Virus record (IMG/VR): IMGVR_UViG_3300014204_000128
Span: 1 to 64,000 of that record
Strand: one strand, 5' to 3'
Length of the DNA stretch: 64,000 bases
DNA from: a virus
Taxonomy: Duplodnaviria; Caudoviricetes
The notes under the pieces are model-generated. The model saw only the letters and a list, made by a program, of their open reading frames with translations. It was not told the DNA's origin and did not search any database. A program made the translations under genes and the position numbers. Shown here piece by piece: positions 35,596 to 52,113 of the stretch (position 1 is the stretch's first letter; every line of letters begins with the position of its first letter).

Positions 35596-36804
35596 ATGAG
35601 ATCTGAAAAGACATTGCCAAAGCTGGAAGAAGAAGTTAAGAGTCTAGGATTGTATGTAAAACCAACAGGAAAGAATGGTAAGTTCATGAAGAGAGATTAC
35701 GTCATGGCACTGATGCAACACCATATCCTAATGTTATATGGATCCATTGATAAAGTTCCAATTAATCTTAAATTTAGACTATCATTTGAATCACCCCAGT
35801 TGGCGTACAACTATTTTGATCTAAAACCAAAAGAACAAGAAAACATATGGGTGTCTGAAAATGTCTGGCTGGTAGAAAAAATACAGGGCATACGTGGGAC
35901 ACTCATCCAATCAATAAGAGAAGGATGGTCATGTTATTCCAGGGATATAAATGAGAAGACTTATATATGGGACAATTACTCTGAAAGGGTTCTGGACCAC
36001 AGTATAGGTAAACTAGACAAGAACATCGTTGTAGATGTCGAATTACAGTTGGCAAACAAGAATGTAAAGCCACTACTGAAAGAAATGAACTTCGAGATTG
36101 AAACAGATTTCCAGTGCATCTCAGCACTGATGATGATCGATAGTGACAAGTTCAACGTAATAGCGAAGCAGTGCCCGAATTTATTCCTATACAAGTTAAT
36201 CGACGTTTATTTCTACGAGACAGACGTAAGGAAGAAAGCATACAAGGAAAGAGAAGAACTGTTTGATAAAATAGTCACTGAATTGAAAAGTGTTGGCGTT
36301 CTTATTGAAAGACCGCTGTATTGTAAAGATCCATTAACAAAGAAAGCATTCCACGAGGGGTTGATAAAACAAGGTGCTGAAGGAACAATAGCAGTGTTTA
36401 TTGATAAACCATGTATACTCGACGGTACTCGGGGAAGAGATGAAATGATAAAGATAAAAAAATCATTGTTCTCTTTAATGTTCGAAAAAAATGCATTGAC
36501 AGACACTGTTGATGGGTGGGTCTCCAAGGTTATAAATTCAGACGAACTGACGGGTCTAGTAAGAACTATAGAAGTAAGTGCATTGGATAATAAAGGCGCT
36601 GTTGTGGTAATAGCAGTGACAGACGCGATACCTTTATCATGTCGGTTATTCTCTCAAACGGGGGACAGTACACCTAGGAACATATCAGAGGGTGATGTCA
36701 TTGAGTTATCAGGTTCAGTATGGAAAGAAGGTCTGATACAGGATGCAACAGTAGAGAGAATAAGGTGGGATAAAATGCCACATGCATGTACTCTTAACGG
36801 TTAA
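35596..36804 (+). CDS. Divergent ATP-dependent ligase/nucleotidyltransferase with OB domain
   Basis: Motif I EKIQGIR, III VDVEL, IIIa YKLIDV, IV EGTIA, V IKIK, VI RIRWDK. Confidence 0.75.
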   Translation: MRSEKTLPKLEEEVKSLGLYVKPTGKNGKFMKRDYVMALMQHHILMLYGSIDKVPINLKFRLSFESPQLAYNYFDLKPKEQENIWVSENVWLVEKIQGIRGTLIQSIREGWSCYSRDINEKTYIWDNYSERVLDHSIGKLDKNIVVDVELQLANKNVKPLLKEMNFEIETDFQCISALMMIDSDKFNVIAKQCPNLFLYKLIDVYFYETDVRKKAYKEREELFDKIVTELKSVGVLIERPLYCKDPLTKKAFHEGLIKQGAEGTIAVFIDKPCILDGTRGRDEMIKIKKSLFSLMFEKNALTDTVDGWVSKVINSDELTGLVRTIEVSALDNKGAVVVIAVTDAIPLSCRLFSQTGDSTPRNISEGDVIELSGSVWKEGLIQDATVERIRWDKMPHACTLNG

Positions 36805-36920
36805 AAATATTTTTTAAAAAATATATAAAAACATTTGGATTTACTCATTTTTTAGTATAATATTGTAAAAGTGTATCCAACCTGGAACACTTAGTAGTAT
36901 ACATTTTTAAATCTAAAGAC

Positions 36921-38012
36921 ATGGTAGTGACTAGTACTTCTGTTACGGAGCAGAATGAATCAGTGGCAAAGGGTTTTTCCCTAAATGATCTAAAGAAAGT
37001 TGAAAACGAGGTGAGGAGAGCAGTCTCGCAGTTACGTTTCAGGTATAATCCTAATACTAGGATGCCAGAAAGTGATGTAGCATGGGACTGCTTTACAACT
37101 TTATACATGAGGGGTTTCTTCCACAAGTATGATGGTACTAAGTCGAAGACAATAACATACTTATGGAATGGTGTAAGAAACTATCTAATCGACCAAGAAA
37201 GAAGTGCATTAAATAAGATGCAACCTGTATCAATGAATACAATGGTCGGTAAAACTAAGACAATATGTCTGGGTGACTTTATAGACAACTCAATATCTGA
37301 AAGTGCCATAGGTATAGAATCATACCTAGAGGTTCTGGACATACTGAAGAATACTATGAAGAATAACACCAAGTACCAGGCAGTTACTAAAGAACTGGGT
37401 AAGGTTTGTCTAAGTGGTTACACAGTCATGTACCTGGTTGTCTCAGGTTACAAGATTCATGAAGTCGCAAAGATGTTCGGGGTATCCAAGGCAATGATTT
37501 CTTTATTATACACGGAAGCACTAGGAATATTAAAAGAGAATGCTGAAGATCTGGATATTAGTACTGATATATTATCCTGGACTAATAAGATGGAGACTAT
37601 CAGGAATTCAGGAAGTGCCCCAACGTGCCCACATTGCGGGGGTCACAGGACTAAATACTGGTGTACAAGTACAGAAGGGACATATGTTAAATTGTACACA
37701 TGTAAGGACTGTACACGTAGCTTTAATATCTTTACTAAAACACCATTACACTGGATGAAAACTAGTGTAAGGCAGCAGTTTATAGCATTTTGTACTGACT
37801 ACACTAACGGCAAAATACTCTCAGATTGCGCAGCAACTGCTGGTGTGGGTTTCAAGAAAGCAACTACATGGTTATCTCAATACAAGGATTACTTCTATAT
37901 TGATTCAAAAAGGATAATATTGAAGAAACTAAACATGTGGGAAGAAGAAATACGGGACTCAATAGAACGAAAGGAAAATGAAAGTATTAAAGATAGGGTA
38001 CAAGCAGATTGA
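36921..38012 (+). CDS. Sigma70-like factor (regions 2 and 4) fused to an IS1595-type Zn ribbon + HTH
   Basis: KYDGTKSKTITYLWNGVRNYLID (region 2), GYKIHEVAKMFGVSKAMIS (region 4), CPHCG...YTCKDCTRSFNIFTKTPL and ILSDCAATAGVGFKKATTW. Confidence 0.75.
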   Translation: MVVTSTSVTEQNESVAKGFSLNDLKKVENEVRRAVSQLRFRYNPNTRMPESDVAWDCFTTLYMRGFFHKYDGTKSKTITYLWNGVRNYLIDQERSALNKMQPVSMNTMVGKTKTICLGDFIDNSISESAIGIESYLEVLDILKNTMKNNTKYQAVTKELGKVCLSGYTVMYLVVSGYKIHEVAKMFGVSKAMISLLYTEALGILKENAEDLDISTDILSWTNKMETIRNSGSAPTCPHCGGHRTKYWCTSTEGTYVKLYTCKDCTRSFNIFTKTPLHWMKTSVRQQFIAFCTDYTNGKILSDCAATAGVGFKKATTWLSQYKDYFYIDSKRIILKKLNMWEEEIRDSIERKENESIKDRVQAD

Positions 38013-38424: not shown

Positions 38425-38440
38425 AAATAACTATTATAAA

Positions 38441-38476
38441 ACGTAACATTATGTATTAATATAACGTTATACAAGT
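38441..38476 (+). promoter_or_regulatory. Divergent copy of the repeated GTAAC...TAACGTTA promoter element
   Basis: ACGTAACATTATGTATTAATATAACGTTATACAAGT upstream of the lipoprotein gene. Confidence 0.5.
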
Positions 38477-38505
38477 AAATTTAACACACATAAACTTAGA
38501 CTAAA

Positions 38506-39213
38506 ATGAAAACACTACAATTGTTGATCGTACTGGCATCTGTAATCGGAATGATACTCACAGGATGCAAGAAGACTGAACTGGAAGGAATCCAGAAAAA
38601 AGACGATACTGTTGGAATAAAAGACACGGTTAATCTAAACCAGAAACTACGCGTTACTGACACGCCCGTCGTTACTGATACGCTGGTAGTCACTAAAGAC
38701 AGTATTATTATAGTAGGGGATACTATAAAGAAAGACACTGTTACAGTTGAACCTGTCGACTCAAATGCTTTAGAACTAAAGAAGTGGTTTAGTCATAACA
38801 TTCCAACAGAGTACTACTATATAAGGAAATACCAGTATAAAAATGGTATGCGTACATTCGAGTATTTATATATATCTGAATCTACGATAAAATACACTAG
38901 AGATGTTGTAGACACGGTAGATAACTCTGTAATAAGTACAAGTACAGAAAACTATCTAATAGACAGTACACGAAAAATAAAAGCGAACAGGTGGGCATGG
39001 AGGGCAAATTGCTCCAGGGTAAGTACGGGAGAAAGGTTAAATAAATGGTTCGTGCTAATGTATTATGATGCCCTAACATGTGCTATACCAAATGACGTTG
39101 AAATTGATGACGATATACTGGTTAGGTTGCACAGGAGTGATTATCCTATATACTATAAAATATCTTACAGGGAAGTAGATTTCAACTGGGTAAAAGTTGT
39201 ATACGAAAAATAA
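38506..39213 (+). CDS. Lipoprotein of unknown function
   Basis: Signal peptide II MKTLQLLIVLASVIGMILTG-C, followed by a T/V/D-rich linker. Confidence 0.8.
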   Translation: MKTLQLLIVLASVIGMILTGCKKTELEGIQKKDDTVGIKDTVNLNQKLRVTDTPVVTDTLVVTKDSIIIVGDTIKKDTVTVEPVDSNALELKKWFSHNIPTEYYYIRKYQYKNGMRTFEYLYISESTIKYTRDVVDTVDNSVISTSTENYLIDSTRKIKANRWAWRANCSRVSTGERLNKWFVLMYYDALTCAIPNDVEIDDDILVRLHRSDYPIYYKISYREVDFNWVKVVYEK

Positions 39214-42979: not shown

Positions 42980-43034
42980 TATTAAATATCGTAACATTTC
43001 ATATATTTGTAACGTTAAAACAGTATAGAACGAA
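42980..43034 (+). promoter_or_regulatory. Repeated early-promoter element, copy 1 (TAnnTTTG)
   Basis: 54/55 identical to 52059-52113, contains TATATTTG. Confidence 0.8.
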
Positions 43035-43606: not shown

Positions 43607-44055
43607 GAACACTAGTTAAACTAGATAGTAAATTATGGTACGAATACATACTCGCAGGGGACTCGTTCGTGACATTAAAAAGTCTAAGAACTGGTTCTGA
43701 AATGTCATATCACATACAGAAGCAAACAGCTATCAGGCATATACATCATGTAAGGTACAGGGTAGAAAGCAAGAAAGGGGCACAATACATATATGTAGGT
43801 ACTATATTCGATAAAAAGTTCTTTAGGTTGTCTGGAAAATCACGGGTAACCCTTGATTCAGTTATATACGTGGCATTCAACTACGTTATAGAGAAACTAA
43901 GGAATGGTGTAATAGACATGGGGGTTGAAATATACCATGAAGGCAAATGTGGCAGGTGTGGTAGGCGGTTAAACTCTGAAGAATCGATGAAAACAGGGTA
44001 TGGTTCAGATTGCGTAAGCAAAATAAAACACAAAATATTGTATAATATATCGTAA
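43603..44055 (+). CDS. DUF6011-like Zn-ribbon protein
   Basis: CGRCGRRL...ES...GYGSDC. Confidence 0.8.
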   Translation: MRTLVKLDSKLWYEYILAGDSFVTLKSLRTGSEMSYHIQKQTAIRHIHHVRYRVESKKGAQYIYVGTIFDKKFFRLSGKSRVTLDSVIYVAFNYVIEKLRNGVIDMGVEIYHEGKCGRCGRRLNSEESMKTGYGSDCVSKIKHKILYNIS

Positions 44056-44080
44056 CATTTCATATATTTGTAACGTTAAA
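44047..44080 (+). promoter_or_regulatory. Repeated early-promoter element, copy 2
   Basis: 34 nt identical to the core of copy 1. Confidence 0.8.
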
Positions 44081-44103
44081 CAAGTATATATAAATTAGAA
44101 ATC

Positions 44104-48709: not shown

Positions 48710-50098
48710 ATGAATATTGATTTAGAAAAAGAAAGAATGATGTTCATCCTGGACAAGCTCTCTCAAGTAAATGCTTGCAAGGGTACAGGGTCAGCAGCTA
48801 AGAAAATTCAGTTAATAAAAGATTGCATAGTAGAAGGAGATGACTTGATCGAATTTGTTCTACGCACGGCATTCGACCCGTTCTGGGTGACTCATATAAG
48901 CACGATAAAGATGGTAGGAAACGATAGACCCTCTACAATAAGTTTCAGGGAATTAGTCGGATCGCTATTAAAGGTGAAAGCAGTCAATAATGATTTACGG
49001 GAAGAAGTAAGTGGGTACATACTCAGTTATCCTGAAACATACAGGGAAATGCTTGGCAAGTTGATAACGAAGAGAATCAATATCGGTGTTGATGTTAAAT
49101 CAATAAACAAGGCACTGGGAAAGGTACTCATTCAGGACGTTGAGATAATGAAAGCTGACTCTGATATAGAAATAGTTAAGAAGTGGTTCGAAACAGGGGA
49201 GGAAGTCTGGGCTGAGATGAAGTACGACGGGATTCGTGGTTTCTCTGAAATGGTTCGGGGTTCTGTTGTCTCAACTAAAACCTACAATATGTCTGAAATG
49301 GACATAGACATCATGTGCAACATTACGGAACAGTTGAACAAGATGGGTAAAACATGGATGAAGACACTCAATATAGACCATTTCTTCTTTGACTTCGAGT
49401 TGACAGATGCAGCACGCCAGTCTATCTCAGGTGAAATAAACAAACTGTTGAAGGGTACGGCAGCGAAAGGGTGTGATGAAAAGTGGAAGGCAAATATATT
49501 CGACGTTCACACGTGGGACATATTCGAAGGGGTAAAAAGTGAAGTATCATATAACAAAAGAAGATATATTCTCGAAGGTATTCACAAGTTAACGCTCAGG
49601 GATGGTGAACTTAAAAATATACTCATTGCTGAAAGATGGAAGGTTCATAATTATGAAGAACTGTTAGCACTATTTACACTTGTACTAGAACAAGGATGTG
49701 AGGGTCTGGTGGTGAAATGTGGATCAGGTGTGTATGAGTTGAAAAGATCAAAGAACTGGGTTAAGTGTAAGGCTGTGAAGGATTGTGATCTAATGATAGT
49801 ATCATGGTTCAAAGGAGAACAAGGAACTAAACGTGAAAAATCAATAGGTGGTTTCACTTGTGTAAGTTCTGACGGTGGTTTGGTTGTATCGGTTGGTTCC
49901 GGTTTCAAAGATAAGATGTTAGATGAAATCATGAAAAATGGGCCTGACTCATATATTGGTAAAATAGCAAAGATAAAGTACAATATGACTATTACCAAGA
50001 GTGATAGTGATATAATGTCTCTATTCCTACCGAGATTCGTTGAGATACGAATTGACAAGGCAGTGGCAAACTCAATAGAAGAAATAAAGAACATCTAA
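48710..50098 (+). CDS. ATP-dependent DNA ligase (T4 gp30-like)
   Basis: KYDGIR, FDFEL, IFDV, EGLVVK, WVKCK, VGSGF, LFLPRFVEIRIDK. Confidence 0.93.
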   Translation: MNIDLEKERMMFILDKLSQVNACKGTGSAAKKIQLIKDCIVEGDDLIEFVLRTAFDPFWVTHISTIKMVGNDRPSTISFRELVGSLLKVKAVNNDLREEVSGYILSYPETYREMLGKLITKRINIGVDVKSINKALGKVLIQDVEIMKADSDIEIVKKWFETGEEVWAEMKYDGIRGFSEMVRGSVVSTKTYNMSEMDIDIMCNITEQLNKMGKTWMKTLNIDHFFFDFELTDAARQSISGEINKLLKGTAAKGCDEKWKANIFDVHTWDIFEGVKSEVSYNKRRYILEGIHKLTLRDGELKNILIAERWKVHNYEELLALFTLVLEQGCEGLVVKCGSGVYELKRSKNWVKCKAVKDCDLMIVSWFKGEQGTKREKSIGGFTCVSSDGGLVVSVGSGFKDKMLDEIMKNGPDSYIGKIAKIKYNMTITKSDSDIMSLFLPRFVEIRIDKAVANSIEEIKNI

Positions 50099-52058: not shown

Positions 52059-52113
52059 TATTAAATATCGTAACATTTCATATCTTTGTAACGTTAAAAC
52101 AGTATAGAACGAA
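52059..52113 (+). promoter_or_regulatory. Repeated early-promoter element, copy 3
   Basis: 54/55 identical to 42980-43034, contains TATCTTTG. Confidence 0.8.

Follow-up and report, generated by a model that had tools for sequence, protein, structure and literature searches.

The stretch analysed here, 64,000 nucleotides long and hereafter called the window, comprises positions 1 to 64,000 of the IMG/VR virus record IMGVR_UViG_3300014204_000128 (Duplodnaviria; Caudoviricetes), a 113-kb record which is estimated to be about half complete. It is a tightly packed phage segment in which every gene lies on the plus strand, and the record as a whole encodes DNA polymerase A, helicases, a ligase, a topoisomerase, a UvsX-like recombinase and tail-fibre genes. 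The gene of interest is a single unbroken open reading frame (ORF), as an earlier examination of the letters alone (the sequence-only reading) had noted, and its 363-aa product consists of four parts: a sigma factor region 2, a short linker, a sigma region 4, and then a tail made of a C4 zinc ribbon, a helix-turn-helix (HTH) domain and a long helix (Table 1). That reading had proposed a phage sigma factor joined to an exapted DNA-binding module of IS1595 transposases, and this is what the analysis found, the module aligning with such transposases at 98.9% in hhalign. We hold the fused architecture with high confidence; it is observed directly, as are the two homologies, the conservation of the fusion, the selection on it, and a promoter class that exists in the genome and is conserved along with it.

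Table 1. Features of the fusion gene and of its surroundings (window coordinates unless stated otherwise).
Feature	Detail	Positions	Strand	Basis
Whole gene, ECF-type sigma with IS1595-derived zinc-ribbon/HTH module	363 aa	36921..38012	+	ORF translation; 12 full-length homologues
Sigma region 2	residues ~16-107	36966..37241	+	VIA-align, TIGR02937, invariant columns
Sigma region 4 with HTH predicted to read the -35 element	residues ~127-215	37299..37565	+	VIA-align, Sigma70_r4 in relatives, 3mzy match
Low-confidence linker helix	residues 216-231; helix 216-229	37566..37613	+	AF2 pLDDT 58-66
C4 zinc ribbon	residues 232-270 (C236, C239, C261, C264)	37614..37730	+	Zn_ribbon_IS1595 (sub-threshold), NF050000, hhalign
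HTH / winged-helix-like domain	residues 278-326	37752..37898	+	hhalign, AF2 helices, VIA-align
Long basic C-terminal helix	residues 330-362, invariant W340	37908..38006	+	AF2 pLDDT 86-93
Translationally coupled ORF, delta'-like (candidate clamp-loader AAA+ remnant)	148 aa	37978..38424	+	synteny; ESM atlas
TAnnATTGTA box, candidate promoter of the sigma gene	~55 nt upstream of sigma start	36858..36867	+	upstream-region comparison
Predicted ECF-type promoter, copy 1	GTAAC 38443-38447, 17-nt spacer, CGTT 38465-38468, AGTA 38474	38438..38480	+	30.3 bits
Predicted ECF-type promoter, copy 2	GTAAC at 42991	42980..43034	+	36.2 bits
Predicted ECF-type promoter, copy 3	GTAAC at 44052	44047..44090	+	36.2 bits
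Predicted ECF-type promoter, copy 4	GTAAC at 52070	52059..52113	+	36.2 bits
Predicted ECF-type promoter, copy 5	outside window	genome position 103279	+	weight-matrix scan; 33.9 bits

The N-terminal two thirds of the protein is a very divergent sigma factor of the extracytoplasmic function (ECF) type, group 4-like, on profile, transitive and structural evidence. A HMMER search over 1.84 billion representatives returned 59 relatives that fall into three classes, namely full-length proteins, proteins that match residues ~20-212 only (N-only) and proteins that match residues ~226-325 only (C-only). Scanned directly, the query gives only sub-threshold matches in Pfam, PHROG and NCBIfam, with no Sigma70_r2 match in the Pfam scan, and the PHROG families phrog_351 and phrog_1740, both annotated 'sigma factor', are reached at 6e-4 and 0.016. 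Among 17 N-only relatives, Sigma70_r4 is found in seven (best 1.3e-6) and Sigma70_r2 in two. The 165-position model TIGR02937 (sigma70-ECF) matches 22 of 28 family members, at best with 1e-10, and spans query residues 56-206, which takes in both regions, and the Bacteroidetes ECF model TIGR02985 matches 10 of the same 28. Compared with the sequences of solved structures in the PDB, a profile of the 28-sequence family reaches sigma-H (3mzy) with 6.1e-6, the match running from region 2 to region 4; a profile of six sequences gave only cysteine-rich zinc-finger noise, and it took 28 to reach a sigma factor. The sigma70 region 2-like and region 4 segments claimed from the letters are borne out in this way by family-level profiles and by structure, the query alone being sub-threshold.

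The structural evidence comes from an AlphaFold2 (AF2) model of the 363-aa protein built from the 59-row alignment, with a mean predicted local distance difference test (pLDDT) of 87 and a predicted template modelling score (pTM) of 0.48. Foldseek searches of the PDB with this model return almost only sigma factors (sigmaL, sigmaH, sigmaE, sigmaS and sigmaA) with probabilities of 0.9-1.0, the low TM-scores being what one expects of domains strung like beads. For residues 16-107, VIA-align finds region 2 of SigC (2o7g) and of E. coli sigmaE (2mao: Z 6.2, rmsd 3.6 A over 87 aligned residues), the matches to region 2 of sigmaE, SigC and RpoE having Z of 6.0-6.2; for residues 127-215, it finds SigR region 4 (5fgm: Z 6.9, rmsd 2.3 A), CnrH, SigD4 and sigmaE region 4 with -35 DNA, the Z range over SigR, SigD, CnrH and sigmaE being 5.7-7.4. 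The matches of the fusion protein in BFVD are phage sigma24/ECF-type factors. Region 2 has the conserved blocks D-I-A-W-D-C-F-T and T-Y-L-W-N-G-V-K-N-Y-L-I-D-Q-E-R, kept as D..DCFT and YLWNGVKNYLIDQER, and the recognition helix of region 4 (VS..YIS.LY) is invariant in the closest relatives. The stretch between the two regions (107 to 127) is modelled with low confidence and, because this linker has only ~20 residues, there is no region 3; region 1.1 is absent as well. It is likely that the protein works as a sigma factor, and we infer that it binds RNA polymerase. Two further sigma relatives, of 519-546 aa (P0027 and P0028), carry terminal double zinc ribbons (DZR/Zn_Ribbon_1); the addition of zinc ribbons to phage sigma factors appears to have happened more than once.

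Profile comparison shows the C-terminal part to be homologous to the DNA-binding head that precedes the catalytic domain in true IS1595 transposases. A phmmer search over the whole library finds ~35 proteins that match residues ~226-325 alone, and among 34 C-only relatives Zn_ribbon_IS1595 is present in 22 (best 2.4e-14) and a complete DDE_Tnp_IS1595 in 9 (best 1.4e-34); NF050000 is found in 8 of the 28 family relatives. Aligned by hhalign with eight IS1595 transposases, five of which show the DDE domain in Pfam, the 12 fusion proteins give a match of 98.9% (E 3.5e-17) in which columns 228-327 of the fusion family, that is, ribbon and HTH, correspond to columns 46-147 of the transposases. The match stops at transposase column 147, right where the DDE domain begins. 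The zinc-ribbon/HTH layout of IS1595/ISXO2 N-termini, read from the letters alone, is therefore present, and the predicted CPHCG-x16 cysteine motif is correct as to its four cysteines but not as to its spacing, which from CPHCG to YTCKDC is 18 residues and not 16. All four cysteines are invariant in the 12 fusion homologues.

The fold of the tail is modelled confidently, as two beta-hairpins, three helices and the long helix 330-362. The second HTH that had been placed behind the ribbon is visible in the model as helices 281-295, 300-307 and 311-324, followed by the long helix, and together these superpose on regulators in which a winged helix is followed by a trailing helix (Sso10a and the N-termini of LysR and MarR) with VIA-align Z of 5.5-7.4. 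The long helix itself has an Sso10a-like match and a charge of +1 to +7 across the family, and most members have a tail module of net positive charge. For this part of the protein, a fused zinc-binding anti-sigma (ZAS) domain was considered and rejected on the beta-ribbon CxxC...CxxC pattern and the alignment to IS1595 heads. The proteins most closely related to the tail (P0022, P0026, P0030 and P0053) have 280-476 aa, no DDE domain and two or three zinc-ribbon+DUF746 modules in tandem; they may represent a further domestication of IS1595 heads.

The same fusion is found in 12 full-length homologues from different samples, which are 29-39% identical to the query and share its synteny. GenBank phages gave no match by blastn or tblastn, scans of viral contigs and genome contigs gave no relatives, and among metagenome contigs only three short ones did. 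The contigs with the stand-alone sigma relatives P0014, P0016 and P0017 measure 1.3-3.5 kb. In the relatives, the fusion gene is single-copy and sits at a fixed syntenic spot: wherever there is enough sequence, tail-fibre genes are followed by a small ORF, a ligase-like ORF of 392-402 aa, an intergenic gap, the fusion gene, an overlapping ORF of 146-149 aa and, further on, the gene for a single-stranded DNA-binding protein. Neither the ORF nor any other part of the 113-kb record contains DDE_Tnp_IS1595, and around the gene or its 3' half there are no credible terminal inverted repeats, only short AT-rich chance pairs; both absences had been reported from the letters, the former for the ORF. 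Synonymous sites between relatives are saturated (pS 0.7-0.85), and the proportion of nonsynonymous differences (pN) is 0.22-0.31 in the tail and 0.18-0.28 in the sigma core, with omega of ~0.1-0.2 where it could be computed. By these measures, the tail is under purifying selection as strong as that on the sigma core.

The sigma core was used for a maximum-likelihood tree in which the fusions all fall into a single clade (86/86), with stand-alone sigma factors (P0017, P0019, P0021) as its sister clade. The fusion clade also includes two proteins with a degenerate, cysteine-poor tail (P0016 and P0018) and two without a tail. Such a pattern fits a single ancient capture, after which the tail now and then decayed or was lost; this is not proven because the inner branches of the tree are poorly resolved. 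Judged from the comparison of homologues, the fusion is old, conserved and domesticated.

The genome that encodes this sigma factor also contains a small and sharply defined class of predicted promoters. The element TAACGTTA is seen six times in the window against 1.6 expected, at intergenic sites whose surroundings have a long bipartite motif in common. A search of the 113-kb genome with the pattern GTAAC-N15-18-CGT, followed by a weight-matrix scan, yielded five intergenic GTAAC...CGTT sites, all on the plus strand (Table 1), that score 30-36 bits, compared with 10.8 for the next match, a maximum of 15.1 on the opposite strand and a maximum of 12.3 in shuffles. The motif is found as well in two relatives whose sigma is ~39% identical, at three sites in L001 and one in L003, and one copy in these relatives occupies the syntenic gap right behind the pair formed by the sigma gene and the 148-aa ORF, which is also the position of copy 1 in the window. 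Invariant across the nine sites are A.A.CGTAACATTT and CGTT.AA, 16-17 nt apart, and ~5 nt later there is an (A/T)GTA block, at the place expected for the start site and core recognition element (CRE). The ECF consensus has AAC at -35 and CGT at -10, with a spacer of 16-17 nt (Helmann 2002; Staron 2009). As a predicted promoter class, GTAAC-N16/17-CGTT has the classic ECF -35/-10 layout. A preference for C-G upstream of the -10 element is a hallmark of ECF promoters, which have ~6 nt from -10 to the start site (PMC6372665).

The fusion sigma probably reads GTAAC...CGTT, an assignment that draws on the motif logic typical of its family and on positional association. The sequence-only reading had offered GTAAC/TAACGTTA as candidate targets of the tail; these elements are better explained as -35 and -10 elements read by sigma regions 4 and 2, and are most likely the sigma's own promoter rather than a site for the tail. 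An operator made of the GTAAC direct repeat or of the TAACGTTA palindrome was rejected, since neither is kept in L001, in L003 or at the fifth site, where only GTAAC...CGTT is conserved; the second GTAAC and the palindrome are limited to the near-identical copies of the window. A Bacteroidota sigmaA promoter (TAnnTTTG) was likewise rejected as the principal interpretation, its box being present in only 4 of the 9 sites, and three of these four are near-identical copies. The T-tracts upstream of the -35 element look like terminator tails of the preceding genes. Two of the promoter modules, each of ~55 nt (copies 2 and 4), differ by one base although 9 kb apart, which suggests recent duplication or recombination between cassettes. 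The product of the first gene behind copy 1 (38506-39213) has 235 aa, a lipoprotein-like signal (…LTGC) and no family match, and the gene contains a tandem 18-nt repeat (38652-38687) that codes VTDTPVVTDTLVV.

The other element that had been suggested as a target of the tail, CGTATAA, belongs to a separate, strand-biased, promoter-like class distinct from GTAAC...CGTT. It has 18 copies on the plus strand and 2 on the minus strand, often right behind terminator hairpins. Copies of CGTATAA(T), often 6-43 nt before a start codon, lie at window positions 2523, 35554, 39300, 41877, 57338 and 62827, and at genome position 77715.

The sigma gene itself is preceded by the box TAnnATTGTA in 7 of the 8 relatives examined (compared regions of L001, L003 and L006-L010). 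The copy in this genome is the sole intergenic one and is one mismatch away from the Bacteroidota sigmaA -7 box. In four relatives GCTAAAC stands 3-4 nt after the box, and 5' leaders measure 55-130 nt (window 36858-36880; L001:9870-9900; L003:9895-9925; L006-L010). Together, TAnnATTGTA and GCTAAAC may mark a host-type promoter whose start region is conserved, and the resemblance of the box to the Bacteroidota sigmaA -7 box suggests that the host holoenzyme makes the phage sigma first. Shine-Dalgarno motifs are depleted (1.4% of genes, against a background of 5%) and positions -14 to -11 form an A-rich tract, features of the sequence which fit a Bacteroidota-like host.

Immediately downstream, the start of the 148-aa ORF overlaps the 3' end of the sigma gene by 35 nt, and wherever a relative offers enough sequence this ORF follows the sigma gene, at 39-53% identity. 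It has a block resembling Walker-B, sensor-1 and 'SRF' motifs (IGDLS...LLKF.EE...MSRFDK) and no P-loop. The ESM atlas groups it with DNA_pol3_delta2 clusters (clamp-loader proteins like DNA polymerase III delta') at 0.94, which is a lead only; its AF2 model is poor (pLDDT 50), and its profile found no match among PDB sequences. Of the earlier claim that the sigma gene overlaps a replication gene, the overlap therefore stands and the replication identity has the standing of that lead. A complex prediction for the sigma and 148-aa families scored 0.00 without controls, a value that says nothing for or against binding. Outside the window, at genome positions 77735-79700 (L016:357-2322), there is a second sigma-like gene, of 318 aa, together with a clamp-loader gene (phrog_5846, 8.9e-50) whose end it overlaps. 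Its product has a canonical region 2 (Sigma70_r2 at 30.6 bits, above cut-off), and no region 4 is detectable in it. That both sigma genes adjoin clamp-loader-type genes recalls the clamp-dependent late transcription of phage T4.

These observations could be joined as follows. The sigma gene would be transcribed, probably from the host-type promoter marked by the TAnnATTGTA box, and its product would bind the core RNA polymerase of what is probably a Bacteroidota-like host and steer it to the small phage promoter class A.A.CGTAACATTT - 16/17 nt - CGTT(A/T)AA - ~5 nt - (A/T)GTA, region 4 reading GTAAC at -35 and region 2 reading CGTT at -10. The ribbon and HTH tail, of ~150 residues, would have been captured once from an IS1595-family transposase, without the catalytic DDE domain, and kept under purifying selection. 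The geometry of sigma region 4 on promoters is known and is the basis for placing the tail at about -40 to -55. Because a flexible linker of ~20 residues attaches it to the C-terminus of region 4, the tail would hang over roughly this stretch, the position of a class II activator. In the reading that we prefer, the tail would act as a built-in third DNA contact, an anchor that holds on to the AT-rich DNA immediately before -35 and so stabilises the holoenzyme. Taken as a whole, an ECF-type phage sigma with GTAAC...CGTT promoters and a DNA-anchoring tail is the best explanation that we can offer, and we hold it with slightly less than even confidence; the contact of the tail with DNA, considered by itself, is a still more tentative proposal, for which the transposon-end-binding ancestry, the intact fold, the mostly positive net charge and the basic terminal helix all speak. 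A stronger form, in which the sigma would bring its own activator and the ribbon-HTH would bind just upstream of -35, or bind the near-identical 55-nt modules as if they were transposon ends, seems rather unlikely.

Several observations weigh against the anchor or against parts of the scheme that contains it. The query alone scores under every curated cut-off, with 18.4 bits for TIGR02937 (cut-off 42.9), 12.1 for Sigma70_r4 (24.1) and 20.3 for Zn_ribbon_IS1595 (25.4). The recognition helix of the tail lacks RWRHR, which is nearly universal in IS1595 N-termini, and has gained Asp residues, the motif having shifted from T-(A/S)-F-R-W-R-H-R-F in the transposases to K-V-(R/K)-K-W-x-D-x-x-x-D-Y-F in the fusions, and ribbon and HTH carry, on average, about half as much charge as in the transposases. 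Cysteine ligands or the whole tail have been lost in some relatives. Across the nine promoter sites there is no strongly conserved element upstream of -35, only a weak T.TAT...A.A., and L009 and L011, the two most divergent fusions, have short contigs in which the motif was not seen. A second sigma-like gene is present, and host ECF sigma factors are conceivable as readers of GTAAC...CGTT. Finally, the characterised C-terminal extensions of ECF sigma factors are all regulatory and none is DNA-binding (PMC7826278).

Some of this speaks for the proposal that the protein is a working sigma whose tail no longer binds DNA and has become a regulatory or protein-binding domain, like the extensions of cellular ECF factors; its possible roles are folding back on regions 2 and 4, sensing zinc or redox state, or docking on RNA polymerase, on a factor of the host or on a partner from the phage. 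Among modes of ECF regulation, C-terminal extensions rank second in frequency and usually take the place of an anti-sigma factor (PMC7826278), and no anti-sigma-like gene is seen at the locus, where the downstream gene is delta'-like and the upstream gene ligase-like. The altered, partly acidic recognition helix, the halved charge and promoters without a strong extra DNA element point in the same direction, as do the degenerate cysteine-less tails, which still retain the helical part. The ribbon and HTH fold is nevertheless intact and confidently modelled, net positive in most members and followed by a basic helix, the pTM of the model, in itself uninformative, offers no hint that the tail is docked in a fixed way on the sigma core, and a lytic phage would have no need of a signal-responsive sigma. 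We consider a purely regulatory tail doubtful, and favour the DNA anchor.

It is improbable that GTAAC-N16/17-CGTT is read by the second phage sigma-like protein or by a host ECF sigma, in which case the fusion protein would act elsewhere, at promoters that have escaped recognition, as a DNA-bound repressor or as a competitor for core RNA polymerase. The genome does offer another candidate reader in its second sigma-like gene, Bacteroidota hosts encode dozens of ECF sigma factors (PMC12259090), the link between the fusion sigma and the motif is one of motif logic and position, and the contigs of L009 and L011 did not yield the motif. However, in the second sigma only a group 1-3-like region 2 is detectable, and a bipartite -35/-10 promoter needs a region 4; the motif accompanies the fusion sigma in three phages, directly behind its operon at a syntenic place, and it is exactly of the ECF type, which is the class of the fusion sigma. 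That the C-terminal half is a functionless remnant of a recent, neutral IS1595 insertion, or an artefact joining two genes, would agree with its homology to a transposase N-terminus but is rejected as next to impossible, given 12 independent full-length homologues from different samples that keep it at 29-39% identity with the same architecture and synteny, four invariant cysteines, a tail pN that equals that of the sigma core despite saturated synonymous sites, and neither a DDE domain nor IS ends.

No sigma factor fused to a transposase DNA-binding head is described in the ECF reclassification (PMC7826278), in a jumbo-phage comparative survey or in the literature that we searched on IS1595 with sigma factors and on domesticated transposase fusions, in agreement with the sequence-only reading, which knew of none. 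Phage sigma factors and ECF extensions are known; what is new is an ECF-type phage sigma that carries a new class of C-terminal domain. The reclassification lists 19 extension-bearing groups, among them ECF41, ECF56 and ECF294 with SnoaL-like domains, ECF42 with TPR and ECF238 with CorE2-type Cys-rich metal sensing, and states that phage ECFs are not captured (Casas-Pastor et al. 2021, PMC7826278). The fusion resembles these groups in having regions 2 and 4 followed by an extra domain (~150 residues, more than 50 aa), in lacking an adjacent anti-sigma gene and in an extension that co-evolves with the core; it differs from them in being phage-encoded and in its transposase-derived zinc ribbon and HTH, which are not among the 19. 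With IS1595/ISXO2 transposases (PF12760 Zn_ribbon_IS1595, HTH and PF12762 DDE_Tnp_IS1595) it shares a homologous ribbon and HTH over ~100 residues, and unlike them it has no DDE domain, no terminal inverted repeats, no mobility and no RWRHR, is less basic, and carries the module at the C-terminus of a sigma rather than at the N-terminus of a transposase.

Stand-alone ECF-like sigma factors of ~170-250 aa, such as gp36 of phiEco32, that of phage 7-11 (PMC4331800) and those of Bacillus phages, redirect the host RNA polymerase to a class of phage promoters, as is predicted here for a longer, fused protein. The few Bacillus-phage sigma relatives that have zinc ribbons have double ones (PF12773; P0027/P0028; Gp17 of vB_BceM-HSE3, PMC7826278) and not the IS1595 ribbon and HTH. 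In the T4 gp55/gp33/gp45 clamp system, as here, sigma genes adjoin clamp-loader-type genes; T4 gp55, however, has region 2 only (~185 aa) and a single -10-like late box, whereas the fusion has regions 2 and 4, a tail and a bipartite promoter, and no clamp-binding motif was recognised in it. The closest parallel in concept is dCas12f-sigmaE (Hoffmann et al. 2025, PMC12259090), in which a Bacteroidota-world ECF-type sigma is recruited by an accessory DNA reader that likewise derives from a transposon lineage; Foldseek ranks one chain of that complex (PDB 9n9q) second for the fusion model. The reader there is a separate, RNA-guided protein, with promoter motifs dispensable, whereas here the module is covalent and protein-only, stands beside strongly conserved -35 and -10 elements, and has a DNA-targeting role that is only putative.

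The protein-only, covalently fused arrangement would, if the tail does contact DNA, be a counterpart of RNA-guided transcription by dCas12f-sigmaE. Sigma factors are thought to recognise promoters through their own regions 2-4, and the capture of transposase domains into transcription factors is well known in eukaryotes. With the DNA-binding head of a transposase maintained by selection throughout a phage lineage, this sigma would represent a novel route to promoter specificity and a rare prokaryotic or viral case of such capture into a core transcription factor; with the anchor in place, promoter choice would need three protein-DNA contacts in one polypeptide, and this would be the first known sigma to gain specificity by taking up a transposase DNA-binding domain. 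The small and sharp promoter class makes the question of the tail directly testable, with a single 55-bp promoter and the protein in tailed and tail-less form, and offers a compact, predicted orthogonal sigma/promoter pair for Bacteroidota-type polymerases.

On the 5' side of the sigma gene, the 402-aa ORF at 35596-36804 is ligase-like, with a weak NF006701 match and a homologue in L011 that has DNA_ligase_A_M. It is a second ligase beside the canonical one at 48710-50098.

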